From a virus: 64,000 bases of DNA. The stretch is taken from the IMG/VR virus record IMGVR_UViG_3300024999_000041, positions 32,001 to 96,000 of that record, one strand, 5' to 3'. Each line of letters starts with the position of its first letter. The first letter of the stretch is position 1. The notes beneath the pieces were generated by a model that was not told the origin of the DNA, made no database searches, and worked only from the letters and a program-made list of their open reading frames with translations. Shown in pieces: positions 3,041 through 31,154 of the stretch. The position numbers were made by a program, and so were the translations under genes.

Positions 3041-3784
3041 TTATATTAAACTAAGTCCATAATTAATCATAGATAACTTAGCGTTAGCATAAGCTGTAGA
3101 GTATTGTTGATTAGCTAACGGATAACCTCCGTTAGTTTGTATAGAGTTAGAATAAGCTTGCCACGCTTGAGAAGTAGCACAAGCATTATAAGCTTCTACT
3201 GCATAATCAAATCCATTGTTGTCTGTAGCATACCCGTGAGTTATTACAGGATAAGCATTACTATAACAAATATTAGAAGCATTCTCAGCACAGTACGCAG
3301 AGTTAATGGAAGTATTAGAGTTAGCCTCAGCTAAAATAGTATTATATATTTTAACTTGGTCGTCTGCGAAATTTAATACTGAGTGTGGATTTATATCTTC
3401 ATTAATAACTGCCTTAGCTACATCCGCTGCCATGTTAGAACCTGTTGACTTAGTAGCACAAATAGAAGCGTTCTCTGGAGTTGGGTTATTCAGATAAGCT
3501 ATAGCAGAAGCTAGAGCTTCAGAAGGTCTCCCGTCATTAGGATAAGCACTGGTGAAATTATTTATACACTGTTGAGATGCAAAGATTCCATATTGTATCT
3601 TCTGACTATGAGTAAGTTGTCTTAATACTAAAAAGTTAGCCCAATCGTATTGATGTTCGGATAATAGTTCAGTTATAAGTGTTGAAGAATCTATCTGGGT
3701 TTGTACTCCAAAATAAGTTACAGCCCATGTATAAAATTCTTTGGAAGCCTCATTATCTTTAAGCCATTGTAATGTTATTTGCAT
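3041..3784 (-). CDS. Imm5-like alanine-rich helical protein
   Basis: YPNDGRPSEALASAIAY motif. Confidence 0.45.
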   Translation of the reverse strand: MQITLQWLKDNEASKEFYTWAVTYFGVQTQIDSSTLITELLSEHQYDWANFLVLRQLTHSQKIQYGIFASQQCINNFTSAYPNDGRPSEALASAIAYLNNPTPENASICATKSTGSNMAADVAKAVINEDINPHSVLNFADDQVKIYNTILAEANSNTSINSAYCAENASNICYSNAYPVITHGYATDNNGFDYAVEAYNACATSQAWQAYSNSIQTNGGYPLANQQYSTAYANAKLSMINYGLSLI

Positions 3785-4035
3785 TTACTCTCCTTTGGTT
3801 CGTTATCAGTTATCTCGGTGAGTTCTCTCATCATAAGAGCTTTAGTCTCCCATTCTCTGAATTGCTCTTCGGTCATTATCTGATAGTCTTGGTGTTCTAT
3901 ATAAAATTCTAAGAAGTAAGATTCTGGATTACAACCCGCTAAATCACTTCCAACATAAGTTTGTATTACATCCCCGTCTTCGTATCTTAATAGATAATGT
4001 CCACTATCAGGACTTGTTAAATATACTTTATTCAT
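3775..4035 (-). CDS. EL[VIT]-tag family small protein (tag plus short extension)
   Basis: ...KALMMRELTE-ITDNEPKESKCK. Confidence 0.75.
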   Translation of the reverse strand: MNKVYLTSPDSGHYLLRYEDGDVIQTYVGSDLAGCNPESYFLEFYIEHQDYQIMTEEQFREWETKALMMRELTEITDNEPKESKCK

Positions 4036-4337
4036 GTAGTTAATTCCCTCATCATGTTTAAGGTAATAAGTTCTTTGTAATCATCTATCTGATATATTCT
4101 CTCTTTACAGGGAGCAATTAGTTTACTTATATATTCTAATTTAGTTTCATAAGTATTAGCGTATACAGGAAGAATTTTATGTTTATCATCAGATAAGTCT
4201 ATTAGTATTATATCAACTTTATAACCTTTTTGCAAGTCGTCAGTTACCAAGCATATTCCATTACCTTCCCTGAAGTAAGCATACTCTTTAGAAGGGTCAT
4301 AGTTCTGTAAGAACTGTTCAAAGGTATATTCTATCAT
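4032..4337 (-). CDS. EL[VIT]-tag family small protein
   Basis: Ends LNMMRELTT; ATGA overlap. Confidence 0.75.
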   Translation of the reverse strand: MIEYTFEQFLQNYDPSKEYAYFREGNGICLVTDDLQKGYKVDIILIDLSDDKHKILPVYANTYETKLEYISKLIAPCKERIYQIDDYKELITLNMMRELTT

Positions 4338-4678
4338 TCCGTCAACTCCCTCAACGTCTTTTTAATTTCCAGAAATTCCGTAGCTTTTTTCTGGGAATCA
4401 AATTCATATATCTCCCAGATATTCCTTAAGTCCCTATACTGCATTAAGGAACCTTCCATGTCATGTAGGGAGGAATGTGTTTCATATTGATTTTCTTTAT
4501 CCAACCAGTAGGTAGAAGATATTTCATATTCTATCCAAGGATAATCTTCTTTATTCCATTTACTTCTATTGGGACAGTGCATATAGCCACAAATAAATTT
4601 TCCATCCTTCTCGTCGTATTCAAGAACGATATATACTTTCTTAGGATTTATATTTGTTTTAATCTCAAACCTAGTCAA
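4334..4678 (-). CDS. EL[VIT]-tag family small protein
   Basis: Ends KKTLRELTE. Confidence 0.75.
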   Translation of the reverse strand: MTRFEIKTNINPKKVYIVLEYDEKDGKFICGYMHCPNRSKWNKEDYPWIEYEISSTYWLDKENQYETHSSLHDMEGSLMQYRDLRNIWEIYEFDSQKKATEFLEIKKTLRELTE

Positions 4679-4902
4679 CTTACCAGCTCTCTTAGGTATC
4701 TTATTCTTTCTACTTCTTCTTTATTCTCTAACAGGGTTACACTATTTATATTAAAGAACTCATTACGATAATCAGAGTCGTAAAACTTATGAACTATTTT
4801 ATAACCGCTTCTTATAAACTCTTGTCCTCTTCTGTTAGTATATAAGTATTTTGAATGACGACTCCTTTTCATAATCTGGTCGATACTTGTAATCTTAATC
4901 AT
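4675..4902 (-). CDS. EL[VIT]-tag family small protein
   Basis: Ends IRYLRELVS. Confidence 0.75.
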   Translation of the reverse strand: MIKITSIDQIMKRSRHSKYLYTNRRGQEFIRSGYKIVHKFYDSDYRNEFFNINSVTLLENKEEVERIRYLRELVS

Positions 4903-5199
4903 CTAATCCACCAGTTCCATCATCATTAGCACTCTGGTCATTTCTTCTTTTTCTTCGGGAGAACATTCCCACACATTAGTTATGTATCTATTATTTATGT
5001 GCATCTTTAGATTTGCTTCATCCCTTCCTCCTCGACAAGAATGCTTAGAGGGATTCTTAGATACGTAAGTAAATCTCCAAATATCAAACATGGCTTTCTC
5101 GGCTCTTTCAAATGTATAATAGCCGATAATCCCATCATCTTCTTTAGAGAAATATAATTTATTATAATCAAATTTATTTATATAATCTATCTTTCTCAC
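4903..5199 (-). CDS. EL[VIT]-tag family small protein
   Basis: Ends VLMMMELVD. Confidence 0.75.
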   Translation of the reverse strand: MRKIDYINKFDYNKLYFSKEDDGIIGYYTFERAEKAMFDIWRFTYVSKNPSKHSCRGGRDEANLKMHINNRYITNVWECSPEEKEEMTRVLMMMELVD

Positions 5200-5460
5200 T
5201 TAGCTTGCTAACTCCAGCATCATTAATCTTTTATTTATCTCATCTTGATTTATAGAATAGCTTATAGTATATAAGGAGGGTTTACATAACTGTTCATATA
5301 CATCTCTTATACTATAAAAGAGGATAGCTATCTCAAGGAGTCCAGTGTTAGTAATGACATAATGCTTTACTCCACTACCTTCTTTGATATAGACATGTTC
5401 GCCACTACAGCTTCGGATATATATTTTAGTTATGTCATTCCAATTATATAACTTAGCCAC
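5200..5460 (-). CDS. EL[VIT]-tag family small protein
   Basis: Ends RLMMLELAS. Confidence 0.75.
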   Translation of the reverse strand: MAKLYNWNDITKIYIRSCSGEHVYIKEGSGVKHYVITNTGLLEIAILFYSIRDVYEQLCKPSLYTISYSINQDEINKRLMMLELAS

Positions 5461-5885: not shown

Positions 5886-6167
5886 TCATTCTACTAATTC
5901 CTCCATTAGCCACTGAGAGAGCATTCTCTCATCAGTTACTATTTCTAATTCATCACGAGAGTTCTCTGCTTTTTTAATTAGTCCTGCTTCGTCAGATACG
6001 AAAAAAGAACGTAACCAGTTACCGTCATGTTCACAATCTGGCTCTCTATAGAATTCTACGCAGTCATCATCTGTTATTCTGTAATAAAGAAAACTTCCAT
6101 AGACTAAACTATTATACAAATCCTCATTACGGTTTATATTATGAAAAATGTATTTATAGTATTTCAT
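5886..6167 (-). CDS. EL[VIT]-tag family small protein
   Basis: Ends QWLMEELVE. Confidence 0.75.
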   Translation of the reverse strand: MKYYKYIFHNINRNEDLYNSLVYGSFLYYRITDDDCVEFYREPDCEHDGNWLRSFFVSDEAGLIKKAENSRDELEIVTDERMLSQWLMEELVE

Positions 6168-6505
6168 CCTACTAACTCCGTGAGTACCATGTGTTTAACT
6201 AAGTGTTCTTTCAATTCTGACAGAGAATCAAATTCTATTATACCTGTTGCTTTCTCTACGTCTTCACTTGTCGGTTTACTATTTACCATATAACTTTCTA
6301 TGTCGTAACACCAATCGGCTACATTACTTTTGAAGTTCTTTCTTTGTTTAATTCTAACACTCCCATCAGAAAAGTCAAGCTCGTAAAGTTTAAAATCATC
6401 TTTTCTTTTCATATATAATTTGAAATCGGGAAGCAATAGATAAACTTTAGATGGATTAGCATCCCAGATATTTTCTCCGTCTACATATCTGTAAGTCTTA
6501 ATCAT
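6164..6505 (-). CDS. EL[VIT]-tag family small protein
   Basis: Ends HMVLTELVG. Confidence 0.75.
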   Translation of the reverse strand: MIKTYRYVDGENIWDANPSKVYLLLPDFKLYMKRKDDFKLYELDFSDGSVRIKQRKNFKSNVADWCYDIESYMVNSKPTSEDVEKATGIIEFDSLSELKEHLVKHMVLTELVG

Positions 6506-6780
6506 GACGAAAGTTCCTCTATCATAAGATGCTTATTAATCTCGTCCATCATCTCTTCGTAAGAATTAAACTGCTTTAGTATTTTATATTTATATAGATT
6601 TTCTGAAATAAGATAACCGTCTCTTATTCTTTCCTCGCTGTAGGTTCTTTCTAACTCATTAGACTTCCCAAATCTAAAGGCATAAGATTTATATGTTTCT
6701 TTACAAGCAAAAGACCCTCCCAATGAAGATACAAAATCATCATTTAAATAAGGTTCTACTTGTACATAATATTTAGTCAT
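6502..6780 (-). CDS. EL[VIT]-tag family small protein
   Basis: Ends HLMIEELSS. Confidence 0.75.
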   Translation of the reverse strand: MTKYYVQVEPYLNDDFVSSLGGSFACKETYKSYAFRFGKSNELERTYSEERIRDGYLISENLYKYKILKQFNSYEEMMDEINKHLMIEELSS

Positions 6781-7210
6781 TGATTAACTCTTCCATAACA
6801 TACTTGGATAGAAATATATTTTCTCCTTTATCTAACATGGGTTTAAAACGCTCTTTGCAATCTTCAAAAGAATCAAATAATAATTTTATAACAGGTTTTG
6901 AATTTGTGTAAAGTCTTATTAAATCATAGAATAAATCTGACCTATTAGTATTTATACGCTCCCATCTTTGAGATTTCAAAGTATGAATGTATCTGGGATA
7001 AACTCCTATCATGCTAAAATCTTCTCTACAAGAATATCTTATAGGCATTAATCCAGTAAACTTCTTATTAAACACTTCTACAAAATAACTCATGCTAGAA
7101 TAAAAGATACTGTTATCCAAGCGTTCCTTTTCTATCATAGGTTTTATAGTAAGTTCGTACCAAACATCTTGGAACTTTAACTTCTGTACAAGTAGCTCAT
7201 GTCTATTCAT
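6773..7210 (-). CDS. EL[VIT]-tag family protein
   Basis: Ends KYVMEELIND. Confidence 0.75.
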   Translation of the reverse strand: MNRHELLVQKLKFQDVWYELTIKPMIEKERLDNSIFYSSMSYFVEVFNKKFTGLMPIRYSCREDFSMIGVYPRYIHTLKSQRWERINTNRSDLFYDLIRLYTNSKPVIKLLFDSFEDCKERFKPMLDKGENIFLSKYVMEELIND

Positions 7211-7404
7211 GATACAAGCTCCCTCATATATAGAAAGGATTCCACCTGTTCTTTACTATATTCTTTCATCTTATCTAACAGAACATTTTCGTTTTCCGTG
7301 AACCATTTCTTCTGATGAAAGGAATACCAAAGTACTCTATTATTAGAATTTATTTTATATATTAAAGGTTTATCTACATCTAGTCTTGTAGCAAAATATC
7401 TCAT
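7207..7404 (-). CDS. EL[VIT]-tag family small protein
   Basis: Ends FLYMRELVS. Confidence 0.75.
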   Translation of the reverse strand: MRYFATRLDVDKPLIYKINSNNRVLWYSFHQKKWFTENENVLLDKMKEYSKEQVESFLYMRELVS

Positions 7405-7634
7405 CTTACCAACTCCTTAAGCATAAAAGGAGCCAAAGCTTTTCCTTCGGATATTTCTTTAACGATGTAATCCTGCTCTTCCCAATGTAACAAAACCTCT
7501 TCAGCAGGATACCAAGATTTCATCCATAAAGGATTATAGCAATTGTCATAAAAATGAATAGAGTTCTCTTCCGAGATACTGTAAACTTTTAAAAGCTCAT
7601 TACCACTCTTACTAATTACTTCGTAATACTTCAT
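7401..7634 (-). CDS. EL[VIT]-tag family small protein
   Basis: Ends PFMLKELVR. Confidence 0.75.
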   Translation of the reverse strand: MKYYEVISKSGNELLKVYSISEENSIHFYDNCYNPLWMKSWYPAEEVLLHWEEQDYIVKEISEGKALAPFMLKELVR

Positions 7635-7885
7635 GATACTAACTCCAGCATAGATAACTCAGCTTCTATTTCTGACTCGTGTAGTATCTTTATTTCGTAA
7701 TCAGTACTTGCTTCAACTAACAAAGCTTTCTCTGTCGGTATAATAGATTCAGTCCATTTACCTTCTCTGAAAGAATAGTAAGATACTCTGGTACCTCTGC
7801 CTCTTATCCTATAAACAGAACAAAGACTTGGTTGCCTTTCATTTCCAGTATATGTAAATTTATAATACTTATACTTACTAGCCAT
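7631..7885 (-). CDS. EL[VIT]-tag family small protein
   Basis: Ends ELSMLELVS. Confidence 0.75.
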   Translation of the reverse strand: MASKYKYYKFTYTGNERQPSLCSVYRIRGRGTRVSYYSFREGKWTESIIPTEKALLVEASTDYEIKILHESEIEAELSMLELVS

Positions 7886-9408: not shown

Positions 9409-9460
9409 ATCATATACTATATTGAATTATACTACAAGTGTTTGTAACTAAACTGTTACT
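9409..9460 (-). promoter_or_regulatory. Early promoter module with AGTAAC-N6-GTTACA box
   Basis: ACAC-TTGTAG-17-TATGAT; box 5 nt upstream of -35. Confidence 0.6.
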
Positions 9461-9777
9461 AATTCTTTTCTTCTGAGTCGAGAAACAATTCCTAAAAGTC
9501 CTTGATGTAGTAAAACATGTTCGTCATGAGACATTATTTGTAAGTTAGAAATATGATTATTAGACTTATTTAAATCTCTATGATGTACCTCATATCCATC
9601 GGGAATTTCAATATCCATTGCTAAGAAGAGTAATCTGTGTTCTAGGATTAAGAAACTTCCTTCGTCTCCTTTGTACCTAACTAACACATACCCGTTATGA
9701 GTAATTTTTCTTTCTCCTTCTCTAAATACTTTCTTAACTAGCTCTTTGTCTCTAGTAAGTCTTTTAATACTTGCCAT
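9448..9777 (-). CDS. HNH endonuclease
   Basis: GYVLV...EHRL...VHHRDLNKSNNHISNL...EHVLLH; ends KELVTV. Confidence 0.8.
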   Translation of the reverse strand: MASIKRLTRDKELVKKVFREGERKITHNGYVLVRYKGDEGSFLILEHRLLFLAMDIEIPDGYEVHHRDLNKSNNHISNLQIMSHDEHVLLHQGLLGIVSRLRRKELVTV

Positions 9778-10000
9778 TAAAATCTCCTGTCAGTTCATTT
9801 AACATCTTTACCGTTTCATAATTCATAACCTTATAATCTGTTGTGGAATGATATCTTTTCATTTCTTGAAGATACACATAGGCTAACTCTTCAGTAGGAA
9901 CAGTATAATCTATTTGTTCTTCGGTTGCTTCTCCAGTACAACAGATATACCAATGATTAGGATTTCTGTCTCGTTGTCCTTGAAATGCTACGCAATACAT
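9764..10000 (-). CDS. EL[VIT]-tag family small protein (tag plus extension)
   Basis: ...KMLNELT-GDFNGKY. Confidence 0.65.
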   Translation of the reverse strand: MYCVAFQGQRDRNPNHWYICCTGEATEEQIDYTVPTEELAYVYLQEMKRYHSTTDYKVMNYETVKMLNELTGDFNGKY

Positions 10001-11496: not shown

Positions 11497-11793
11497 TCAT
11501 TTTGTCAACTCATCTATAAATTTATCTACCACATCTCTTTTTCTTTGTTTCCATACGGCTATCATATATCTATACATAAACCAAGGAAATATTACAAATA
11601 CTATTAAAAGAATGTATCTTTCATTCTCATAAATATCAAAGACATCTCTAAATACTAGATAGTCCCAAAGCTCATTACAAAAAGAAGGAGGAGAGTATAT
11701 TCTTATAAAAATTAAAAATGCTATGAAATTAAAAGTACAGTATAATACAAAGACAAGTAGCATTATAAGTAGTATAGCAAATACTTCTTTCAT
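11497..11793 (-). CDS. Two-TM membrane protein with EL[VIT] tag
   Basis: Two hydrophobic segments; ends KFIDELTK. Confidence 0.65.
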   Translation of the reverse strand: MKEVFAILLIMLLVFVLYCTFNFIAFLIFIRIYSPPSFCNELWDYLVFRDVFDIYENERYILLIVFVIFPWFMYRYMIAVWKQRKRDVVDKFIDELTK

Positions 11794-12053
11794 TAGTCAG
11801 TAAGCTCTTTCATTAAATCAGCAGTTATAAACTTAATATTAAATTGTTCTAAATCTTTAGAACAAGTCATCTTCCCATCTATAATTGCTTTCTGTATCTT
11901 ACGTGTATATATTTCAAGATGCACTGGACATAAATCTATGTGTTCCCAATCGGAAGTATATCTATCATAGTCCAAAGATTCTCCATGATAAAGTTGTATC
12001 TTTCTAACATATTCTATTTCATTACATTTATCACATCGTCTTATACTAACCAT
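11793..12053 (-). CDS. Zn-finger protein with EL[VIT] tag
   Basis: CDKC...CPVH; ends DLMKELTD. Confidence 0.7.
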   Translation of the reverse strand: MVSIRRCDKCNEIEYVRKIQLYHGESLDYDRYTSDWEHIDLCPVHLEIYTRKIQKAIIDGKMTCSKDLEQFNIKFITADLMKELTD

Positions 12054-12054: not shown

Positions 12055-12318
12055 TCAATCTCCTGTTAATTCTTTAAACACATCTAATTCTTGTTTCTTA
12101 ATACAATAATCTATCAGAACCATATAGTCGTCTATCTCTTCAATAAACTTATAAGTAAAGACTATTAAACTTCCACAGTCGGAACAAGTATGAGTAGTAC
12201 TTAATTTATCTAGGGTTCCTTTAACATAATAGGGTTGTCTACAAATAGGACAGGTACTAATAAATCCATAAGACCTCATACTCAAAAAGAACTTTGTAAT
12301 GATACCGATTATGTTCAT
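12055..12318 (-). CDS. Zn-ribbon protein with EL[VIT] tag
   Basis: CPIC...CSDC; ends VFKELTGD; start moved to ATGA overlap. Confidence 0.65.
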   Translation of the reverse strand: MNIIGIITKFFLSMRSYGFISTCPICRQPYYVKGTLDKLSTTHTCSDCGSLIVFTYKFIEEIDDYMVLIDYCIKKQELDVFKELTGD

Positions 12319-12647
12319 GCTACTAATTCCCACATTGTTCTTACAGTATCTATATCTTCTGTTATCCTAGTTACTATAAGATGAGGATAAACTTTATTAT
12401 CAAATATTGTAGGCTTATCTAATTCAAAATCATGAGAGACTCTTCCATCTATCCACAATCCTTTTTCCATATCCCTAACTAAGACTTCGAGCACGTTAGG
12501 AACTCCTCTGCCTAGCATACCCTTTGTTTGTAGGTATCCAGAAGAAGTTTTAATTATGAAAAAGTAAACAGGGTCAGTCTCCGTGTAACTATCAAAAGCA
12601 CAAGGGTTCTTCACCATCCATACATCTTCTATTTTAATTACTGTCAT
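12315..12647 (-). CDS. EL[VIT]-tag family small protein
   Basis: Ends VRTMWELVA. Confidence 0.75.
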   Translation of the reverse strand: MTVIKIEDVWMVKNPCAFDSYTETDPVYFFIIKTSSGYLQTKGMLGRGVPNVLEVLVRDMEKGLWIDGRVSHDFELDKPTIFDNKVYPHLIVTRITEDIDTVRTMWELVA

Positions 12648-12904
12648 ACTACAAGTTCTCTCATTACTCTGTACGCTTCTATTTTCTCTATGTATTCTTG
12701 TACCTTGTCTTTATCTATTTCAAAGATACCTTGAGATATCATATAGTGAGTTTGAGCTTTGATACCTTCCATACTCATAGGTTGGAAACAATCCCATTTA
12801 CCATGATAGTTTAGTTCATAGGTCTTATCATTATAAGACTTAAACACTCTAACTTTTATTATAGAATCGGGGAAGCATAATTCATAGTATCTAATCTTTG
12901 TCAA
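12644..12904 (-). CDS. EL[VIT]-tag family small protein
   Basis: Ends YRVMRELVV. Confidence 0.75.
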   Translation of the reverse strand: MTKIRYYELCFPDSIIKVRVFKSYNDKTYELNYHGKWDCFQPMSMEGIKAQTHYMISQGIFEIDKDKVQEYIEKIEAYRVMRELVV

Positions 12905-13311
12905 GTTACAAGCTCCCTCATATATTTAAAAGTCTTGAAGTCTTCTTGGTTTAAATCAGTAAAGGCATAAGTAACAGAACCACCGTTGTAATAATCTATA
13001 CCGAATACATGTTTCACTGGTAAATCATCATCGTAGTATACAGTCTGCCAAATCTGGTCTCTATTATTTGTCTGACCATAGTTTAATCTTATAGCTTCTA
13101 AGTTTGGCTTGGGGTTAGTTATATGCACTATAACATCCCCTTGTATATAATTTACCATTCCGTATCCTAAAGCACCATTGACAGGAACCAACTGATTGAA
13201 TCCGTCATCCATAAGATAATTTTTAGTCAGTACTCCTTCATGGCTGAAAATTACACTCAGGGTATTTTCTCTTATGTTTCCTAGGGTCTCTATGCAGAAA
13301 TCACTTATCAT
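12901..13311 (-). CDS. EL[VIT]-tag family protein
   Basis: Ends FKYMRELVT. Confidence 0.75.
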   Translation of the reverse strand: MISDFCIETLGNIRENTLSVIFSHEGVLTKNYLMDDGFNQLVPVNGALGYGMVNYIQGDVIVHITNPKPNLEAIRLNYGQTNNRDQIWQTVYYDDDLPVKHVFGIDYYNGGSVTYAFTDLNQEDFKTFKYMRELVT

Positions 13312-13829
13312 GCTACTAACTCCTGCATCATTAGAAACTTATCAACATTGTCTACTATCTCAATTACTTTAAGTAAGTCTCTGGCTTTTATACAGGATTC
13401 GTCCCCTTCTACAGATAGTATCATCCTACCATTTTTCATAACCTTCTTAACTTCTAGTTCAGTTTTGTTATCGAAGTTACCGTCAGTGTATATACGCAAG
13501 GACACTATAAAGATATCTCCGTTCCAGATATTATCACACATCCAGATACTGGGACGAAAGCTAGTGTTAGCCTCAATAAGATTCTCTATCTCGTGAATAT
13601 GTTTATATCTCTTATTAGTATTTGCTTTCCCAAAATCTTTATAGGTATCTAAAAGCTTACTGTGTAGTTGTCTTAACTTCTTGTCATACCAAGGATGTAA
13701 GTTTCCTTTCCTATCTGTTACGTAGGTAGGTAACTCTTCTTCTTTCTCTTCAGTTACACTTTCTCCTATAAATAGATTCTTAATATATTCTATTAAAGAA
13801 AAGTGTTCATTACAACAAGGACATTTCAA
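13308..13829 (-). CDS. EL[VIT]-tag family protein
   Basis: Ends VDKFLMMQELVA. Confidence 0.75.
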   Translation of the reverse strand: MKCPCCNEHFSLIEYIKNLFIGESVTEEKEEELPTYVTDRKGNLHPWYDKKLRQLHSKLLDTYKDFGKANTNKRYKHIHEIENLIEANTSFRPSIWMCDNIWNGDIFIVSLRIYTDGNFDNKTELEVKKVMKNGRMILSVEGDESCIKARDLLKVIEIVDNVDKFLMMQELVA

Positions 13830-14131
13830 CTTACAAGTTCCCTCATCATTACATATTTATCTATCTCTGCTAAGTATTGTTCTTTAGTTCTGTACTCTTT
13901 TATTATATCGTTATAGAATTTCTCATGATTAGTTGTATAAGAAGTTTGTAACCTATTACCAACTACAGTAAGAATCTTTCCTCTCTGTAAGTCATGAGAG
14001 TTACATACGAAAGAATAAGCGAAGGCTCCTTGGATAAATCCTTCAGTTTCCCAATACATAAAGGAACACTCGGGGGAATTATAATCAGTGTTAAGACACT
14101 TTGATATTTTAAAGTACCTTGACTTATTCAT
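13826..14131 (-). CDS. EL[VIT]-tag family small protein
   Basis: Ends EIDKYVMMRELVS. Confidence 0.75.
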   Translation of the reverse strand: MNKSRYFKISKCLNTDYNSPECSFMYWETEGFIQGAFAYSFVCNSHDLQRGKILTVVGNRLQTSYTTNHEKFYNDIIKEYRTKEQYLAEIDKYVMMRELVS

Positions 14132-14388
14132 AGCGTTAATTCTTTCATAGTTAATATTTTATCTATTTCTTCTGGGTCAAATATTATAGAGAGTACTTGG
14201 AAACCTCCATCATTTTTATCTCCAGAACATAGAACTCTTTTTAAAGCTTCTGTTAAATCCTCTTCATAACATTCATAGTCAAATCCATCATTCAGATAAG
14301 TACATCTTAATTGATTACCTTTCTGATAGTAGTAGTGTTCATTAATCTTTCCACTCCTTCTTGTCTTTACTATGATTCTTTCTATCAT
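14128..14388 (-). CDS. EL[VIT]-tag family small protein
   Basis: Ends EEIDKILTMKELTL. Confidence 0.75.
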   Translation of the reverse strand: MIERIIVKTRRSGKINEHYYYQKGNQLRCTYLNDGFDYECYEEDLTEALKRVLCSGDKNDGGFQVLSIIFDPEEIDKILTMKELTL

Positions 14389-14687
14389 GATACTAGCTCT
14401 TTCATCATAACATACTTTTCTATTTCTTGCAAGTACTCTTCTTCAGAATTATATTCTTCTAAGTAACTATGAACTGTAGTAGTTGTTCCGTAGGCTCCTC
14501 GTTCCACTAACTGTACTGCATCTATTGTTTCACATCTTTTAGCTACTGTATGTGTACATTTACAATGAACTTGTCTTTCAAAATCATATACATAAAGTAT
14601 ATCCCCTATTATATAAATCATAGATATACCACCAGAACAATGCTTATCTCTCCAAGACATTAGAGGTAACTTGTAATACTGAATCAT
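14385..14687 (-). CDS. EL[VIT]-tag family small protein
   Basis: Ends EIEKYVMMKELVS. Confidence 0.75.
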   Translation of the reverse strand: MIQYYKLPLMSWRDKHCSGGISMIYIIGDILYVYDFERQVHCKCTHTVAKRCETIDAVQLVERGAYGTTTTVHSYLEEYNSEEEYLQEIEKYVMMKELVS

Positions 14688-15028
14688 TCTACAAGCTCCT
14701 TTAGCGTTCTATACTTAGTAAGACATCTCTGTAATCCTTTCTTGGTTCTGAATTCATATATGTTCCACTGTCGTACTCCTTCACTATAGGATAGACTGTC
14801 GGCTATGTCATCTACCCAATCCCACAACCAATCATGGCTTGTGTAATCACATCCTTCTAGTATTAAGTCTTCCCCCAGATTATACCTTATATAATCTCCA
14901 TATCCATCCTCATCTCGTTCTTGTACTTCGTAAGCAAAGAACCTATCATCCACTTCTGGTATTAAGGGAACAGCAAGATAGAATCTATCGGGTCTTATGT
15001 TACATACAAGTTTCTCTATCTGTTTCAT
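14684..15028 (-). CDS. EL[VIT]-tag family small protein
   Basis: Ends YRTLKELVE. Confidence 0.75.
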   Translation of the reverse strand: MKQIEKLVCNIRPDRFYLAVPLIPEVDDRFFAYEVQERDEDGYGDYIRYNLGEDLILEGCDYTSHDWLWDWVDDIADSLSYSEGVRQWNIYEFRTKKGLQRCLTKYRTLKELVE

Positions 15029-15291
15029 GATACGAGTTCCTGCATCATTAAGTAATTATCAACCTCACAGTTTTCTATCTCGTAGAAAATATCTGGAAAC
15101 AACATAACATCTTTATCTATAACAAGGTCATGGAATATTAACAGGTTCTTGTGTACCTCTGCTGTAGAAGATACTCCCCATCTTATAAACTTTAATACTG
15201 TATATTTAGGGTTACTGAGGCTAGTACCTAAAGGATAATATAGATAGTGCTTCCCTGTTATACACTTATAGGTTCTCTTTAGTTGATTCAT
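15025..15291 (-). CDS. EL[VIT]-tag family small protein
   Basis: Ends EVDNYLMMQELVS. Confidence 0.75.
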   Translation of the reverse strand: MNQLKRTYKCITGKHYLYYPLGTSLSNPKYTVLKFIRWGVSSTAEVHKNLLIFHDLVIDKDVMLFPDIFYEIENCEVDNYLMMQELVS

Positions 15292-15584
15292 TCTACTAAT
15301 TCCTCTATCATTAGTTCATTTTGAAACCGACCCCAAGTTATTTCTTCTATAGGATTACCCTTGCTTTTAATCCAGTTGAAGAATTCTAACTGAGTATTGT
15401 GTCTTGTTGTATACCATGATTTACTAACCTTGTCCCAAACTTCTAGTATGTACTTGTCTGGTTCTTTATAAGTAAGAATGTTATGTTTTCTATAATAAAC
15501 ATAAACAGTCTTATCTTCTGATTTTATAGACGGGTCGGTATAATTCCAGTTACGGAATTCTACTTTGAAATAAATATCTTTCAT
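15288..15584 (-). CDS. EL[VIT]-tag family small protein
   Basis: Ends ELMIEELVE. Confidence 0.75.
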   Translation of the reverse strand: MKDIYFKVEFRNWNYTDPSIKSEDKTVYVYYRKHNILTYKEPDKYILEVWDKVSKSWYTTRHNTQLEFFNWIKSKGNPIEEITWGRFQNELMIEELVE

Positions 15585-15877: not shown

Positions 15878-16110
15878 GATATTAATTCCTTCATTGCAAG
15901 GGAAGCTTCAAATTCTTCTGTAGGAATTTGTTCTATCTTATATTGGAAAGCCTCAGCTACTCTTATCATTTCAGCCTCATCTATGAAAGAAACAGTAGAC
16001 CAACAATCTTTATAGTTACCATCATAATAGCTAATAAGATTATTGTCTCTTACTCTATAGATGTCATCCGTATTGTTATCTGTATTTGTAACTCTAAAAT
16101 ATTTAGTCAT
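15874..16110 (-). CDS. EL[VIT]-tag family small protein
   Basis: Ends EEFEASLAMKELIS. Confidence 0.75.
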   Translation of the reverse strand: MTKYFRVTNTDNNTDDIYRVRDNNLISYYDGNYKDCWSTVSFIDEAEMIRVAEAFQYKIEQIPTEEFEASLAMKELIS

Positions 16111-18808: not shown

Positions 18809-19053
18809 CCGATGAGTTCCTTCATACACTTAAGCTTTGTCTTCTCTTCCTCAGACTCTATCTCGTAGATATCATATATGTCAAAGAATCCAGAGTAGCC
18901 TTGAAGGAATGTACCCATGCCATCTGTCAGTCTGTAAGAAGTCCATTTCATTATTCTCTTCTTATTAGTTATGCTTATCCAATTGTCTTTCTTCCTGACA
19001 GTGTAGTAGTGTTTCTTATATTTGATATCAGCCTTATTAAATATTTGTATCAT
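18805..19053 (-). CDS. EL[VIT]-tag family small protein
   Basis: Ends LKCMKELIG. Confidence 0.75.
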   Translation of the reverse strand: MIQIFNKADIKYKKHYYTVRKKDNWISITNKKRIMKWTSYRLTDGMGTFLQGYSGFFDIYDIYEIESEEEKTKLKCMKELIG

Positions 19054-19379
19054 GTTGTAAGTTCCTTTACATACTTGAGAGTATTAAGAAATCTTTTAAC
19101 TGCTCTAAGGGATTTAAACTCGTAGATAGAATTCCAATTCTCTATCGTAAGATGATATCTGTCGTAAATCTGACCAGACCAGTTCCTGAAAGTATCGAAG
19201 CTTTCCTTACAATAGTATGTATAGATGTTTAAATCTAAAGTAATTTCATTACAAATAAAAGTACGTTCTCCAACCTTATGATACAACTCTCCAGCAGAAG
19301 AATATCCCTCTGGGTTATTTCTTAGTACCAGATATAACCTGTCCTCTTTAATATTAATCTTAGGAATAAACTCTTTCAC
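19050..19379 (-). CDS. EL[VIT]-tag family small protein
   Basis: Ends LKYVKELTT. Confidence 0.75.
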   Translation of the reverse strand: MKEFIPKINIKEDRLYLVLRNNPEGYSSAGELYHKVGERTFICNEITLDLNIYTYYCKESFDTFRNWSGQIYDRYHLTIENWNSIYEFKSLRAVKRFLNTLKYVKELTT

Positions 19380-19684
19380 GATATTAACTCCAGCATACTG
19401 TCTAATGAATCTCTCACTTCATCAACTTCTTTCGTACTATCTATTTCGTATATAGAATAGTCTCCATGTCCATAGTTCTTTCCATGATTGAATAAATGTA
19501 ACAGTTGACTATCGTTGAACTTATGACGATTGTTATTCACTGGTGTGTTAGCATGCCATACGAGATAATGTAAGAATGTTCTTATTACATTAGTAGGCTT
19601 ATATCCTTTATAAGAACGATAAGTATACACATATACTTTATCTCTGTTCAGTTCTTTTATAGGTAATTCTAATAATCTTATCAT
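19376..19684 (-). CDS. EL[VIT]-tag family small protein
   Basis: Start moved to ATGA overlap (MIRLL); ends LDSMLELIS. Confidence 0.7.
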   Translation of the reverse strand: MIRLLELPIKELNRDKVYVYTYRSYKGYKPTNVIRTFLHYLVWHANTPVNNNRHKFNDSQLLHLFNHGKNYGHGDYSIYEIDSTKEVDEVRDSLDSMLELIS

Positions 19685-19917
19685 GATACTAATTCTTTCA
19701 TCATTATAATAGTATTTGCTTCCTCCTCTGTTATCTCTACCATAGTATCCCTCCATATATTAATGCTACTAAGGCTCTCCACATTAGGGAAATGGGTTTC
19801 TCTCCACCTTACCTCCCCCTCTATTTTCTCACAAACTTCTACATTTCTGATTCCTCCCGAGTTCCATCTAAAGAATCCAAAAGGGAAAGTTATATTTGAT
19901 TTAAAATATCTTACCAT
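19681..19917 (-). CDS. EL[VIT]-tag family small protein
   Basis: Ends EEANTIIMMKELVS. Confidence 0.75.
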   Translation of the reverse strand: MVRYFKSNITFPFGFFRWNSGGIRNVEVCEKIEGEVRWRETHFPNVESLSSINIWRDTMVEITEEEANTIIMMKELVS

Positions 19918-20207
19918 GATACTAATTCTACCATAAACTCTTTTGTTTGTCTAGCCACAGTTTCTTTTTCTATTACATCAGCTATAGCACTCGTGATAGC
20001 TTTAGGAAGACTATCTCTATGACTCTGTTCCATTCTGGGACTGTAGTATAATCTATCCCAACTACGTACTTCATTGAACAAGTACTCCATAGTGTAAGTA
20101 CCTTTTCTTCTATCGACAAGTCTTAAGTTGTGTACTCTCAGTTCGTTACCTTTATTAAATAGATAATACCTACTCGTCTCGGCTATAAGATTGTATTCGT
20201 TTGACAT
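19911..20207 (-). CDS. EL[VIT]-tag family small protein
   Basis: Ends KEFMVELVSW. Confidence 0.7.
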   Translation of the reverse strand: MSNEYNLIAETSRYYLFNKGNELRVHNLRLVDRRKGTYTMEYLFNEVRSWDRLYYSPRMEQSHRDSLPKAITSAIADVIEKETVARQTKEFMVELVSW

Positions 20208-20937: not shown

Positions 20938-21177
20938 TTAGTTTACAAGTTCTTGTATAGTAAGTATTCTAGTTATCTCATCTTCATCTGTTATTATTTT
21001 GAGACCCACAGGAAATTCATCTATTATATCTTCTAGGCTTAAACCCATAGTATGTATAGGACATAAGTATTCTTTCTTGTCATTTAAATATCTATAATGA
21101 ATATTACTCTCACCATAAAAGTATAAACGAGAAAGAGCAGGGTTATAAGGAATATCTACTATAAGTCTTTCAAGCAT
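20938..21177 (-). CDS. EL[VIT]-tag family small protein
   Basis: Ends DEITRILTIQELVN. Confidence 0.75.
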   Translation of the reverse strand: MLERLIVDIPYNPALSRLYFYGESNIHYRYLNDKKEYLCPIHTMGLSLEDIIDEFPVGLKIITDEDEITRILTIQELVN

Positions 21178-21437
21178 TAGTTTACTAACTCCTTCAAGAC
21201 AAGAGCACCGTTGAATTCGTCCTCAGTTAGTTCTTCTACTATGTTTAATTTATCATATAAGTCCTGTATGTAATCACAGTAGGCTCCAGTATACTTATCG
21301 TAATGTTGAAATAAAACATATCCTTTGGGAACAGCTAACTGATGAGGACAGAATTTAACATACTCGAAAAGATTAGACGGGGTTATAAACTTAAAGTATC
21401 TGGGTTTAGTATATTCAAGATACCAATCTAAACTCAT
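21177..21437 (-). CDS. EL[VIT]-tag family small protein
   Basis: Ends DEFNGALVLKELVN. Confidence 0.75.
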   Translation of the reverse strand: MSLDWYLEYTKPRYFKFITPSNLFEYVKFCPHQLAVPKGYVLFQHYDKYTGAYCDYIQDLYDKLNIVEELTEDEFNGALVLKELVN

Positions 21438-21809: not shown

Positions 21810-22079
21810 TTAGTTTATTAACTCCTTCATGCACTTGTATATCTCTGCTTCTTCTTCAGTAACCTTCTGGAATTCCTTTGGATTATTTGTACAACCGTGG
21901 TCTAACAGTTCTCTTAATTCCACTTCTGACACATCACTCCACATAGTAACAGAGAATCCGTTGAAGTAGAATTGTTTCTTGGTAGCTACATCTCTTATCG
22001 CCCATGCTCCTCTACGACAATCGTGGAACAACTCGTCATAATAAACTTCTACTATACTATCGTTAATCTTATAGTACAT
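21810..22079 (-). CDS. EL[VIT]-tag family small protein
   Basis: Ends EEAEIYKCMKELIN. Confidence 0.75.
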   Translation of the reverse strand: MYYKINDSIVEVYYDELFHDCRRGAWAIRDVATKKQFYFNGFSVTMWSDVSEVELRELLDHGCTNNPKEFQKVTEEEAEIYKCMKELIN

Positions 22080-22606
22080 TAGTTTACCAACTCCTGTAGC
22101 ATTATGATTGAATCTATCTTGTCTTCTGAGTTCAACATCTCTTTTACTTCCTCAGTTATATCTTCATCGTTAAGGAACTTCTCCAATGAATTATAGTAAT
22201 AGAATCTTAAGTTGTCGTATAGATTACTACGTATCCTAGAAATTATAAAAGCATCATTAGAGTTGGGGTAACTATAGTAATCAGAATCATCACCAGATAC
22301 AATATTAAATCCTCCTGATTTAGAAAAGGTTATCTTCCACACTTTACCTCCTTTCCAATAAGAACCTTCTTTGTGTATTACAGAAAAAGTTTCATTTGTA
22401 TTATAAAGTTCTTTAATCTTATTATAGCATATTATTACTAAAGCATCAAGTAGTTTGTAACTAAATCTTATCTTATTAGCTTCTTCTTTTATTAACTCAG
22501 GATTATCAATCGCATCTTTAAGCATACCTCGTAGAGAACTATGGCTTCTACAGTTCTCTTCTATTAAAAGTATATCTGCTATTACTTCTGAGTTAGTGTA
22601 ATTCAT
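22079..22606 (-). CDS. EL[VIT]-tag family protein
   Basis: Ends IDSIIMLQELVN. Confidence 0.75.
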   Translation of the reverse strand: MNYTNSEVIADILLIEENCRSHSSLRGMLKDAIDNPELIKEEANKIRFSYKLLDALVIICYNKIKELYNTNETFSVIHKEGSYWKGGKVWKITFSKSGGFNIVSGDDSDYYSYPNSNDAFIISRIRSNLYDNLRFYYYNSLEKFLNDEDITEEVKEMLNSEDKIDSIIMLQELVN

Positions 22607-23248: not shown

Positions 23249-23653
23249 TTAGTTTACAAGTTCTTCCATAACTTTAGATGCGTTCATTATACTATCGACT
23301 TCTGCTCTTCTACGAGAACAATCAAAACATCCTACGTAAGTTATTCTACAGTAGACTTTAACTATAGCTGTAACAACTCCGTCTATGTTTTCGTATGTTA
23401 GTATATTGCTTGTACTGGCTTGGTCGTATTCTATATTAACACAAGCATAACCAGCACTGAAATCTTTAACGTGGTTTCTTAACTCTTCATTATATAAACT
23501 GGAATGATAGTAAACATTGGGTACTACTAAATCTCTGAAGGTAATTTCATTATCTGTCTTAGCAATACATTGTACTGAAGTTCCTCTTGATGGAATGCGT
23601 TCTCTCTTTTTTCTTGGGGTCATACTTTTACCAGAACATTTAAAACCTATCAT
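23249..23653 (-). CDS. EL[VIT]-tag family protein
   Basis: Ends SKVMEELVN. Confidence 0.7.
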   Translation of the reverse strand: MIGFKCSGKSMTPRKKRERIPSRGTSVQCIAKTDNEITFRDLVVPNVYYHSSLYNEELRNHVKDFSAGYACVNIEYDQASTSNILTYENIDGVVTAIVKVYCRITYVGCFDCSRRRAEVDSIMNASKVMEELVN

Positions 23654-26267: not shown

Positions 26268-26444
26268 TTACAATTCATCAGTGCATTCTCCTGAATCTAT
26301 TAAGTCGGTAGCTACTCTTCCGTAATGTCCTTGCAACTGCCATACTAATTTACTATCTATTAAATCTTGGAACAGTTCTACTATCTCTTCGTTATCAAGT
26401 TCGCCTTGTTCATAAGCAATGATTCTATCTACATAATCTGCCAT
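26268..26444 (-). CDS. 58-aa phage protein
   Basis: MADYVDRIIAYEQGEL...ELFQDLID..LVWQLQGHYGRVA; below ORF-track cutoff. Confidence 0.6.
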   Translation of the reverse strand: MADYVDRIIAYEQGELDNEEIVELFQDLIDSKLVWQLQGHYGRVATDLIDSGECTDEL

Positions 26445-26758
26445 TAGTTACTAAGCTCCTCTAACTTCTTATTAATCTTTTCTTGTACTCTTTCTTTACT
26501 ATCATTGGAATTATTAATCTGAATTACTTTAAATCCTTTATTGCAAAGTTCTTTATTAATCTTAGATAGGTACTCAGATGTATATTCAAAATTCCTAGCT
26601 TCTTTCTTTCCGTACTTCTCTATGAACTCAACACCGTTGATTACAGAAACATAACCAGATAAATCTTTAATACCGAAATTAATTAGTAGCATCCATCTGT
26701 CTCTAAGGGAGATTGTTATTCCAGCTTTTCTTAAGTCTTCTAATGTTTTTAAACTCAT
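26444..26758 (-). CDS. Hypothetical protein with tag-like end
   Basis: Ends NKKLEELSN. Confidence 0.6.
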   Translation of the reverse strand: MSLKTLEDLRKAGITISLRDRWMLLINFGIKDLSGYVSVINGVEFIEKYGKKEARNFEYTSEYLSKINKELCNKGFKVIQINNSNDSKERVQEKINKKLEELSN

Positions 26759-29596: not shown

Positions 29597-30106
29597 TAAA
29601 TTATATTGAATTTCTTAAGTATGTTATATAAATTATGAGGATTAGTTTGAGAAGAGTTTATATCATGTAATACTTTACAATGGAATAAAGCATCTGTTAC
29701 TACCTCAGAACAGTAGAGAAATTTCTCCGATTCTTTTGTTTTAATCTTTGAATTAATACCGTGAAGTCCCGATACAAATGCTTGATAGAAATCATAAGGT
29801 CTTCCATTTACATCAGTAACAAAAGCTCTGAAAGCATTCGCATCAAATCTTTCTCTAGCACTTGCAGTTAGGGGGGAAGCAATCTTTACTCTGTGTTCTA
29901 TTTAATGCTTCTGACAATGGAACTATTCTCACTCCACTTGTTTGAGCTTCTAACATATTTTCTGAATCAACTGCAATACCTACGTGAGTATATTTAGACC
30001 AAGTAAATATTCTAATGATTTGTCCCATTAAATCAGCAGGTTCAAAAAATACTACATCTCCTGCTTGAAGCTTTGGAAATTGTTTTTGTTTCTTACTGAA
30101 TAACAT
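29596..30106 (-). pseudogene. Permuted papain-like amidase (YiiX/YaeF, NlpC/P60 superfamily) split by one frameshift
   Basis: LQAGDVVF...YTHVGI...LEA in frame 0; GRPYDF...YCSEVV in +1 frame to stop at 29596. Confidence 0.65.
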
Positions 30107-30133
30107 AATTTATTCTCCTATTGTTTATAATAT

Positions 30134-30355
30134 TTATGTAGCATTGATTATAGTTTCATAAGACAATTGAACTTTGGTAGGGTCTAATGCTTGGAAGTTA
30201 CCCCTATCCTCAAAAGCAAATTCAACATTATCTACTGTGTATGTAACCTTTACTCCATGTATGTCTGTTATAGATATTAAGTCTCCCGCTCTTGGTAATA
30301 AAACCACAGTTAAGTTCTCTGCTATTACGGTTCCACCTACTACTAATTTCATCAT
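30134..30355 (-). CDS. Hypothetical protein
   Basis: AAGGAG RBS; LPRAGDLI motif. Confidence 0.6.
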   Translation of the reverse strand: MMKLVVGGTVIAENLTVVLLPRAGDLISITDIHGVKVTYTVDNVEFAFEDRGNFQALDPTKVQLSYETIINAT

Positions 30356-30378
30356 ATATTATTCTCCTTTAATTAATA

Positions 30379-30612
30379 TTATATGTCCCAACTTATTTCC
30401 AGTACTCTGTCAGTCTCTGTTGTTTTCTGTATGGTTACTTTATACCCTGCTTCTTGATAGTATGATACTACCTCGTCCGATAATGAAATAGGAATCTCAT
30501 CTACTTTAATACTAAGCTTACCGTAGTGTACCCTTCCGTTTACCTTGTTATCTACTATGGATATAATAGAATCCAATGTTTCTTTACGAACTTCCTTAGC
30601 GGATTTTGTCAT
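30379..30612 (-). CDS. Hypothetical protein
   Basis: Coupled ORF. Confidence 0.6.
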   Translation of the reverse strand: MTKSAKEVRKETLDSIISIVDNKVNGRVHYGKLSIKVDEIPISLSDEVVSYYQEAGYKVTIQKTTETDRVLEISWDI

Positions 30613-30819
30613 CTAGTCCTCCTTATAATTTGATAGCATTACATCATAATCGCTGAAAGCGTATGAGAGTTTTACTATCAAATCCCATGCTTCATCGGAA
30701 GGAGCTACGTCCTTTGATTCAAAGAAGTCCAGTATCTTTAATAGAGCTACTGCTTCTGTATTTGTTTCCAGTGTTATCTTAATAGGTTGAAATGACAATC
30801 CTTCTTGTTCTATCTTCAT
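30613..30819 (-). CDS. Hypothetical protein
   Basis: Coupled ORF. Confidence 0.55.
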   Translation of the reverse strand: MKIEQEGLSFQPIKITLETNTEAVALLKILDFFESKDVAPSDEAWDLIVKLSYAFSDYDVMLSNYKED

Positions 30820-31154
30820 CTTACTAACTCCTCTAATACTTCAGCAGAAACTTGAGGTAGTTTATAATTAGGGTCTTCTAATTCCCTAATCATTCTTCCA
30901 AAATTAGTTATCTCTTTAATAGAATTTCTTATAGAAGATTTAATACTTGTATAAGCAATGGTAAATTCTGGATACAAATCTCTATATCCATTACAGTCGC
31001 TATATGTAATTCCCCATAAAAAATTAGATATGTCCATTGGTAACTTAGCATTAAGTAAAGTGTTCTTAATAACTCTTTGATATAGTCTTGGGAAATCATT
31101 AGATTTCTTCGAGTCTATTATCTTTTGGAAATCTCTAAGTGTATAAATTTTCAT
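30816..31154 (-). CDS. Hypothetical protein with tag-like end
   Basis: Ends AEVLEELVR. Confidence 0.6.
   Translation of the reverse strand: MKIYTLRDFQKIIDSKKSNDFPRLYQRVIKNTLLNAKLPMDISNFLWGITYSDCNGYRDLYPEFTIAYTSIKSSIRNSIKEITNFGRMIRELEDPNYKLPQVSAEVLEELVR

Follow-up and report, generated by a model that had tools for sequence, protein, structure and literature searches.

Why do about 50 small proteins, encoded side by side on one phage genome, all finish in nearly the same residues? The question is raised by a 64,000-nt stretch (positions 32,001 to 96,000 of IMG/VR virus record IMGVR_UViG_3300024999_000041; hereafter the window), which makes up the accessory half of the genome of an uncultured phage (~190 kb), has a G+C content of ~32% and carries all of its genes on the minus strand. 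The original prediction, made from the letters of this DNA, held that the common ending is a helical tag docking many variable proteins on one partner, and that it is not just a by-product of the Shine-Dalgarno (SD) sequences of the genes that follow. Our results indicate that purifying selection on the protein, not on the ribosome-binding site (RBS), keeps the tail motif in place, and they allow the possible roles of the tail to be weighed.

A C-terminal module under protein-level selection

We surveyed the C-termini of every listed minus-strand open reading frame (ORF) of the window for the motif [MLIV]-x-E-L-[VITAS]-x(0-3). Between 48 and 52 ORFs of 65–175 aa carry it, matching the roughly 50 first reported, with the consensus ending h-[ML]-x-E-L-[VIT]-x. 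They lie in blocks at 3775–7885, 9448–10000, 11497–20207 and 20938–23653, with two more at 26444 and 30816 (Table 1); two or three of them, including the HNH endonuclease at 9448 and the ORF at 26444, are weak members. Given that the core motif was found at internal positions in just 4 cases among the 142 window ORFs, only ~0.03 C-terminal cases would be expected by chance. In G001, a complete 190,151-bp IMG/VR genome with terminal repeats and a polymerase 97% identical to that of the window, ~100 of the 382 ORFs are tagged (26%, about a quarter), all within the part that runs from 184.5 kb through the genome end to 103 kb. There, 98 tagged ORFs lie at 0–103 kb and none at 104–184 kb, the replication and structural half, consistent with the earlier observation that replication and structural genes lack the tag. 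The tag had been given a length of 6–14 residues, which proved too short: the C-terminal motif is real, and the conserved element extends over ~25 residues (h-x-E-h-[TSD]-x-E-E-h-x-x-h-L-x-M-x-E-L-V-x), a module in which a short strand (h-x-E-h) and an S/T/D-x-E-E helix cap precede a helix finishing in the motif.

Codon usage and divergence within the motif separate selection on residues from selection on nucleotides. The conserved Leu is encoded by TTA 25, CTT 15, TTG 4, CTG 3, CTC 3 and CTA 2 times, near genome-wide usage, and the six codons pointed out before (TTA at 5200, TTG at 4334, CTT at 7207, CTC at 15025, CTA at 14385 and CTG at 4675) are all as described. The Glu of the 52 tails is GAA in 29 (56%) and GAG in 23, including the GAA tails without GGAG at 17261, 19681 and 14128, and Asp (GAY) never takes its place. 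Across 30 tagged ortholog pairs between the window and G001, the proportion of synonymous differences (pS) was 0.90 in the Glu column, where that of nonsynonymous differences (pN) was 0; in the Leu column, pS was 0.65 and pN ~0, the residue never changing. Body pS was 0.38, and pN/pS was 0.22 for the motif vs 0.29 for bodies. The comparison of synonymous with nonsynonymous change that had been suggested as a check thus found residues kept while synonymous sites vary. Among paralogs, the 42-nt tail plus junction shares ~48% nucleotide identity.

A second line of evidence came from 222 ATGA-coupled ORF pairs drawn as a control from unrelated AT-rich viral loci (0.8 Mb). Of these pairs, 9.5% had Glu at position -4, 1.8% had E-L and none (0%) had the full motif, as opposed to 86% (E-L) and 77% (full motif) of the coupled pairs of the window; equal frequencies, which would have spoken for a nucleotide-level cause, were not what we observed. 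The motif also persists away from coupling. A position-specific scoring matrix (PSSM) trained on coupled tails, with the E and L columns excluded, gave a mean of +7.7 for the ~20 tails with >15 nt to the next called gene, a set in which a few gaps are gene-calling artefacts, vs -26.5 for untagged C-termini. The ORF at 20938, with its 86-nt gap to the next gene, is indeed uncoupled. The motif is likewise present where the SD of the next gene sits after it (ELTGD) or after the stop, and the separate SDs that had been reported at 3775, 9764, 12055, 18560 and 23249 lie after the motif or in an extension. Essentially no SD was found in 6 of 30 coupled tails.

The claim that the motif is not an SD by-product therefore stands on codons, pS, control pairs and uncoupled tails, with the qualification that the SD still matters, being strengthened by the choice among synonymous codons in the tail. 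An SD-like xAG-GAR is located 8 nt upstream of the next AUG, and the distance from motif to next AUG stays fixed even where the stop is displaced (ELVSW, ELIND). Anti-SD duplex energy was -5.26 kcal/mol for real tails vs -3.30 ± 0.41 kcal/mol for synonymous resamples. SD-favouring codons are enriched in tails (GAG 44% vs 31%, GTA 79% vs 46%), as is a third-position G at column -1 (63%), and 33 of the 38 NTGA overlaps in the array region (87%) have the tail. The tail stretch is dual-coding: it is a protein motif, and the initiation of the next gene makes use of its free positions and synonymous sites.

Two observations on junctions can be added. In L124, a related locus, the next start lies 2–5 nt past the stop of the ORFs at 5344–5586, 6036–6260 and 8668–8877, and the last two variable residues there are R-R or R-K; these endings (AGG AGA or AGG AAG) spell an SD, the free positions serving the RBS and the conserved positions remaining fixed. 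At the other end of the proteins, position 2 is nearly always I, K, R, S, T or N at ATGA junctions (e.g. 4032–20207), because the ATGA overlap makes the second codon of the downstream gene begin with A. This residue bias is a true by-product of coupling, but on N-termini.

Gene bodies and cassette shuffling

The tagged genes behave as cassettes. Only 72% of the window between 3 and 31.5 kb aligns to G001, in blocks that are whole genes, some of them reordered, and 40% of the ends of high-scoring segment pairs fall ≤6 nt from a stop codon vs 4% at random. The cassette at 14684–15028 is absent from the corresponding position of G001, with the breakpoint exactly at the ATGA, and is present elsewhere in that genome; the two-gene difference at 12644–13311 involved a crossover inside the motif that left a hybrid tail. 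Tail plus ATGA is thus a cassette boundary, at or within which crossovers add, delete and relocate whole genes. Between the window and G001 no swapping of tails among bodies was detected: tails move with their own bodies.

The junctions are 4-nt coding overlaps, and the five terminator-like sites in 20 kb equal shuffle expectation. Sigma-70-like sites are modestly enriched (130 vs 96 ± 11), and the 'late' motif TTTATATTATA is not. Perfect 12/12 sigma-70 promoters (TTGACA-16/17-TATAAT) occur at 16257–16285 and 5810–5837 on the minus strand, within coding sequence and on the coding strand. The sigma-70 consensus sites hint at transcription of the array by host RNA polymerase, that is, early transcription. 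Just past stops in the few intergenic gaps we noted a TTGTAACAAT-like motif, partly palindromic (TGTAAC..GTTACA), at 8156–8165, 8330–8339, 10069–10079, 24002–24012, 25782–25791, 26835–26844 and 27241–27250; with 19 matches at ≤1 mismatch vs 10.2 ± 3.5 expected, this motif may act as a promoter or operator of the phage.

The bodies had been called very different from one another, which is correct in part. Two large classes are real families when window and G001 members are pooled: class 1 (~16 members, ~105–118 aa) has an N-terminal N-I..K-x-Y and I-Y-E-F-D-S before the helix, and class 2 (~22 members, ~70–90 aa) has M-x-K-Y-Y, a conserved W and E-I-T-x-E-E. AlphaFold2 (AF2) models of class 1 (predicted local distance difference test, pLDDT, 80.9; predicted TM-score, pTM, 0.76) and class 2 (pLDDT 93.3, pTM 0.78) have a common order of elements: several strands, helix, strand and C-terminal helix. 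Tail ends are predicted to form an amphipathic C-terminal helix, and the models together with helical periodicity agree with the helix postulated from the sequence. A profile-profile alignment of class 1 with class 2 (hhalign) joined only their last 23 columns; BLAST and phmmer linked only small clusters of tagged ORFs, and homology searches with the module-free bodies of one class recruited no other members. The tail is also present on a predicted membrane protein and several Cys-rich (zinc-ribbon) proteins, which fits the earlier description of differing bodies. Given that two large classes have the same element order, much of the set appears to be a paralog family and not a tag pasted on unrelated domains. 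We conclude that this part is probably one hyper-expanded, fast-diverging fold, and the module may additionally sit on a few unrelated bodies.

Database searches gave few leads on function. Pfam and PHROGs returned one HNH endonuclease and scattered weak matches for the 52 members, Pfam at E ≤ 5 gave nothing recurrent for class 2, and an ESM Atlas look-up gave no usable feature match. Foldseek found no match in the PDB at E ≤ 0.001 for either model. The best VIA-align scores were Z 6.4 and 5.9, below the level of Z 8 under which a match reflects a common arrangement, and the weak PDB chains were common to both models. Among these, the first ~78 residues of 2ra8_A (Z 6.4, root-mean-square deviation, rmsd, 2.2, 72 aligned, hence also below Z 8) are presumably WGR-like; PARP WGR domains reached Z 4.1–4.2, again below Z 8, and there was no Pfam WGR match. 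BFVD gave weak matches only (TM 0.45–0.66) to uncharacterised small phage proteins, including ones of jumbo coliphages, which are a lead. An exhaustive search of 1.84 billion representative proteins with the class 1 profile returned 20 proteins. Of these, 19 were retrieved, all small proteins from this lineage of phages, and 17 of the 19 keep an E-L or K-L tail ending; the 20th, not retrieved, is 996 aa long, repeat-like and matched in ten stretches. A junction-pattern scan of IMG/VR, a method too narrow for relatives, yielded 112 loci with one match each and no multi-tail contig on rescan, and a related-locus search with P0022 had no match in viral or metagenome contigs. Judged by these searches, the tagged family is confined to this phage lineage.

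Lineage-specific tails and a possible shared partner

Comparison with related loci revealed three types of tail, described here with the E or K numbered column 0, L +1, V +2 and M -2. Type A (M-x-E-L-[VIT]-x) includes, besides the window, locus L123, in which the 438-aa protein embedded in the array is 53% identical and half of the 10 tagged ORFs (5/10) are uncoupled. Type B (M-A/h-x-E-L-x-K) was found in L122, L121 and L126. Type C was found in L124 and L120, where 36 of 42 small ORFs have K(-6), L(-3), [VAI](-2), x, K(0), L(+1), x, [KRQ], with K encoded by AAA 18 and AAG 17 times and Leu by six codons; in this type the tail is constant while junction types vary. The last residue is S, E, N, G, T or A in type A and K, R or Q in types B and C, and extensions of 1–24 residues past the motif are tolerated. 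In type A, residue 0 is E in ~150 tails; in type C it is K in 35 of the 36.

The switch between types is concerted. Five A–C and four A–B ortholog pairs, found with tails excluded from the search, all carry the tail of their own lineage. Homogenisation of tail ends by recombination was considered as the main cause of this uniformity and rejected: the tail end was significantly more diverged in only 1 of 24 ortholog pairs, so exchange is rare and the uniformity is not accounted for by homogenisation of DNA. Similarity between tails is slightly higher for neighbours than for distant pairs (0.50 vs 0.475, p ≤ 0.001). On a helical wheel, assuming an ideal helix, the last seven residues turn their hydrophobic face ~125–150 degrees away from the face of the upstream helix, and E/K(0) falls on the polar side.

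Given that lineages replaced tail residues in all paralogs, orthologs included, at sites with diverse synonymous codons, these sequences suggest that the tails may be recognised by one shared binding partner, a possibility we place just short of evenly balanced. The mechanism that we favour starts from a lineage-specific, hyper-expanded set of small proteins, ~50 in the window and ~100 per genome, each with one C-terminal module. The same tail codons carry the SD and the ATGA stop/start of the next gene, with synonymous choice tuned to that role, and each gene behaves as a cassette ending in tail plus ATGA and moved by crossovers at or within the tail. On this reading, the last two helix turns (M -2, E 0, L +1, V +2) would form a recognition surface for one trans-acting partner, phage- or host-encoded, and the variable bodies would be the specific parts, probably host-directed; docking might then serve loading, stabilisation, timed removal or assembly. 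More tentatively, these two turns may be an address tag that docks ~100 small proteins on one phage or host hub, tag and hub co-evolving between phage lineages. With similar reserve, the hub could be a loader, chaperone, protease or capsid component, and the array a library of effectors that are shuffled as cassettes and share one handle.

Several points weigh against this proposal, which the original prediction had anticipated as a docking helix for one partner: the concerted change of tails across paralogs fits docking, but no partner was found. In quick searches of G001, AAA (PF00004) remained below cut-off and TPR_12 had no match. The exposure of the E and of the terminal hydrophobic face is suggested by a helical-wheel calculation. 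In the AF2 models the helix is placed with confidence inside each monomer, so it may be purely structural. Most members, ~110 of those pooled, are unlinkable through their bodies, so the set may be either one family or a portable module. Types B and C come from contigs of 1–13 kb, with 10 and 36 tails, and lineage relations are uncertain, the phages being mosaic. Finally, NTGA overlap was found for 69% of tagged vs 13% of untagged ORFs of the same region, and so strong an association between tail and 4-nt overlap makes a role linked to coupling conceivable.

The alternative that survives best takes the tail for the last helix of one fast-evolving fold, copied together with the ATGA by tandem duplication and having no partner. 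Lineage consensuses would then have arisen via drift, occasional tail-to-tail recombination and selection for neighbour-compatible tails. The same predicted element order with a confidently placed C-terminal helix in two large classes, the joining of these classes through the module by hhalign, the crossovers inside tails, the tight link to NTGA overlap and the slight likeness of neighbouring tails would all be accounted for. It is harder to reconcile with a residue that apparently faces solvent and is nevertheless uniform per genome (E or K) despite diverse synonymous sites, with orthologs that switched in parallel while tail-end exchange was rare, and with tails on membrane and Cys-rich proteins, which cannot share the fold. 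We consider this explanation unlikely, although it deserves to be taken seriously.

A tail that acts as a degron timing the removal of early proteins (e.g. via an HslV-like protein and a host unfoldase), or as a capsid-loading or ejection signal, is improbable. The window does encode a proteasome/HslV-like ORF at 49432–50241 (24.2 bits, over the first ~50 residues only), with no phage AAA+ unfoldase above cut-off in G001. Degrons of the ssrA/ClpX type have non-polar residues at the free C-terminus and are position-dependent; a classical C-terminal degron is unlikely here, given that the last residue is variable and polar and that extensions past the motif are tolerated. T4-type capsid targeting sequences are N-terminal amphipathic tags, removed by the prohead protease, on proteins that occur in virions. 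The N-terminal tags of head proteins in this genome hold similar h-x-[EK]-L-[VT] strings, a resemblance attributable to generic amphipathic sequence, and to our knowledge capsid-targeting sequences are N-terminal, which counts against a capsid signal.

Equally doubtful, or a little more so, is a role of the nascent chain, in which the last residues at the UGA of ATGA would tune release, recycling and re-initiation, the partner being the ribosome tunnel or RF2. The high share of array NTGA overlaps with a tail, the fixed distance from motif to AUG and the Lys endings of types B and C agree with it, but tails are kept with gaps of 45–300 nt or with an SD past the stop, one tail has an 18–24-aa extension that is conserved in G001, amphipathic periodicity and a helix cap suit a folded helix, and type C junctions vary under a constant tail. 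Lastly, the motif might be produced purely at the nucleotide level by the SD of the next gene and ATGA coupling. For this one can cite that K/R/Q/E-E in this frame spells xAG-GAG, the enrichment of G at column -1, GAG and GTA, and anti-SD pairing that beats synonymous resamples (a constraint superimposed on the motif and not its cause). Such an origin is extremely improbable in view of the background Leu codons, the GAA majority, the invariant E and L at high pS, the motif-free control pairs and the uncoupled tails that retain the motif.

Relation to known systems and genomic surroundings

Translational coupling with an SD in the 3' end of the upstream gene is a general feature of bacterial and phage gene organisation. 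The array resembles it in the ATGA overlap, the xAG-GAR before the AUG and the codon bias toward SD pairing, and differs in an amino-acid-level conservation that extends over ~25 residues, is kept without coupling and is absent from the control pairs. Shared C-terminal docking elements include those of poxvirus ankyrin/PRANC adaptors, whose F-box-like C-terminal domain binds Skp1/cullin, the E-block signals of Legionella Dot/Icm substrates and the EEVD ends of Hsp70/Hsp90 that bind tetratricopeptide repeat (TPR) domains. As in these, many bodies end in one short element, here with an acidic block at columns -10/-9 and hydrophobics near the end; the analogy is one of logic, since our proteins are 65–175 aa long, belong to a phage with a bacterial host and come with no TPR_12 match in G001.

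Expansions of small proteins within single lineages have been described in jumbo phages before. Bacillus phage G has a ~35-copy zinc-ribbon family that was called 'unprecedented' (Iyer et al., 2021; PMC7824862). Both sets consist of many diverged copies of small uncharacterised proteins that form arrays among the accessory genes and are restricted to one lineage (PMC7824862). The array described here differs in its ~100 copies, in a C-terminal strand-helix module in place of a zinc ribbon, in its several body classes, in a tail that overlies the SD and start of the next gene and in the concerted tail switch. In T4-type phages, small accessory genes are subject to modular shuffling mediated by PeSL elements (Arbiol et al., 2010; PMC2839356). 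There, cassettes are likewise bounded by a repeated element and undergo whole-gene insertions, deletions and replacements with breakpoints in the element (PMC2839356); PeSL is a non-coding promoter plus stem-loop terminator, unlike the boundary here, which is a coding tail plus 4-nt overlap with ~48% DNA identity. Phage Acb5 proteins are anti-CBASS proteins of ~100 aa that cleave cyclic GMP-AMP (cGAMP), with an R10/W38/H61 pocket and a homotetrameric assembly (bioRxiv 10.1101/2025.07.12.664507). The class 2 model aligned with an ESM-Atlas Acb5 cluster at TM 0.69 (by query)/0.57 over 74 residues (rmsd 2.6), a shape resemblance in one class without a sequence match, and thus a lead and not an assignment.

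What is new is the size of the array, a single tail-defined set making up about a quarter of all ORFs, a shared ending under amino-acid selection that doubles as initiation region of the next gene and cassette breakpoint, and the concerted, lineage-specific switching of that ending in orthologs (E-L-V to K-L-x-K). As a natural case of dual coding the tail is a clean one, and it also marks gene-cassette breakpoints. If docking is true, tails of types A and C would be expected to bind the versions of one partner that belong to their own lineages. A hub, if it exists, would explain how large phages organise and deploy big repertoires of fast-evolving accessory proteins, and would make the class 2 fold (78 aa, pLDDT 93) a small, well-folding scaffold with a portable handle.

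Table 1. Tagged ORFs of the window (all on the minus strand), with their C-terminal tails; coordinates are those of the window.
Coordinates	Strand	ORF	Tail	Remarks
3775..4035	-	tagged ORF	MMRELTE	motif followed by 18-aa extension bearing SD of next gene
4032..4337	-	class 1	MMRELTT	ATGA overlap
4334..4678	-	class 1	TLRELTE	
4675..4902	-	tagged ORF	YLRELVS	
4903..5199	-	tagged ORF	MMMELVD	
5200..5460	-	tagged ORF	MMLELAS	
5886..6167	-	class 2	LMEELVE	
6164..6505	-	class 1	VLTELVG	
6502..6780	-	class 2	MIEELSS	
6773..7210	-	tagged ORF	VMEELIND	last codons contain next start
7207..7404	-	class 2	YMRELVS	
7401..7634	-	class 2	MLKELVR	
7631..7885	-	class 2	SMLELVS	
9448..9777	-	HNH endonuclease	RKELVTV	doubtful member, possibly chance
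9764..10000	-	tagged ORF	MLNELTG	motif plus 6 residues; separate SD (GGAG) downstream of motif
11497..11793	-	predicted membrane protein	FIDELTK	
11793..12053	-	Cys-rich (zinc-ribbon-like)	LMKELTD	
12055..12333	-	Cys-rich	VFKELTGD	SD in TGD codons, not KEL
12315..12647	-	tagged ORF	TMWELVA	
12644..12904	-	class 2	VMRELVV	not in G001
12901..13311	-	tagged ORF	YMRELVT	not in G001
13308..13829	-	173 aa, N-terminal CxxC	MMQELVA	tail of G001 ortholog hybrid (crossover within motif)
13826..14131	-	tagged ORF	MMRELVS	
14128..14388	-	tagged ORF	TMKELTL	AAA GAA, no GGAG
14385..14687	-	tagged ORF	MMKELVS	
14684..15028	-	class 1	TLKELVE	AF2 model; cassette at another site in G001
15025..15291	-	tagged ORF	MMQELVS	
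15288..15584	-	tagged ORF	MIEELVE	
15581..15877	-	tagged ORF	SLVELIE	
15874..16110	-	class 2	AMKELIS	AF2 model, pLDDT 93
16107..16346	-	class 2	IMEELIL	
16343..16660	-	class 1	FMEELTK	ortholog in type C phage ends LAEKLKQ
16657..16911	-	class 2	MMSELVA	
16908..17264	-	tagged ORF	MIEELVS	
17261..17554	-	tagged ORF	VMKELVS	no GGAG
17551..17796	-	tagged ORF	FMQELVG	start set at 17796, not longest ORF
17793..18005	-	tagged ORF	TMQELVE	
17981..18226	-	tagged ORF	CMKELIA	
18223..18549	-	tagged ORF	FMKELTV	
18560..18808	-	tagged ORF	YLNELIS	TAA stop, then SD of next gene
18805..19053	-	tagged ORF	CMKELIG	
19050..19379	-	class 1	YVKELTT	ortholog ends: type B MAKELLK, type C LADKLSK
19376..19684	-	class 1	SMLELIS	
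19681..19917	-	class 2	MMKELVS	no GGAG
19911..20207	-	tagged ORF	FMVELVSW	ATGG in place of ATGA, one extra codon
20938..21177	-	tagged ORF	TIQELVN	next gene 86 nt away (uncoupled)
21177..21437	-	tagged ORF	VLKELVN	TAATG junction
21810..22079	-	tagged ORF	CMKELIN	TAATG junction
22079..22606	-	175-aa tagged ORF	MLQELVN	
23249..23653	-	134 aa, Cys-rich	VMEELVN	stop, then SD of next gene
26444..26758	-	outlier	KLEELSN	weak
30816..31154	-	outlier	VLEELVR	ATGA overlap; kept in G001 at 103226-103564

The phage has no close cultured relative: megablast of 12 kb against 50,697 phage records gave no match, and its Pol I is <27% identical to that of any cultured phage. The right half of the window holds replication and recombination genes: those for Pol I, two helicases (DnaB-like and SNF2), a RecA-like protein, a ligase, an SbcCD-like pair and an exonuclease, and the ORF with a weak proteasome/HslV-like match. 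The latter, which is the HslV-like protein named in the original prediction, is a 269-aa ORF (49432–50241) among the ligase and exonuclease genes, and its match to Pfam Proteasome compares with a cut-off of 22.4 bits. Two homing-type endonucleases are present, HNH_3 at 9448–9777 within the array and GIY-YIG/NUMOD3 at 36348–37403 in the replication module. The untagged neighbours at 34722–35348 (208 aa) and 35360–36046 (228 aa) are paralogs of each other (34% identity over 87 residues, E 1e-4).

Inside the small-gene array, ORF 10090–11406 encodes the 438-aa protein, a beta-helix (pectinesterase-like) protein whose last ~20 residues are very conserved and recur in proteins of numerous other large phages, likewise uncultured (55 metagenome loci); it probably serves as a fibre or spike, unusually placed for such a protein. 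A 190,177-bp JGI contig contains a 98% identical copy of this ORF. In relatives, a GmrSD_N (PF03235) protein is encoded at 2364–2903 of L123, and ART-PolyVal proteins also adjoin the arrays; these are conflict-type genes of the same accessory region.

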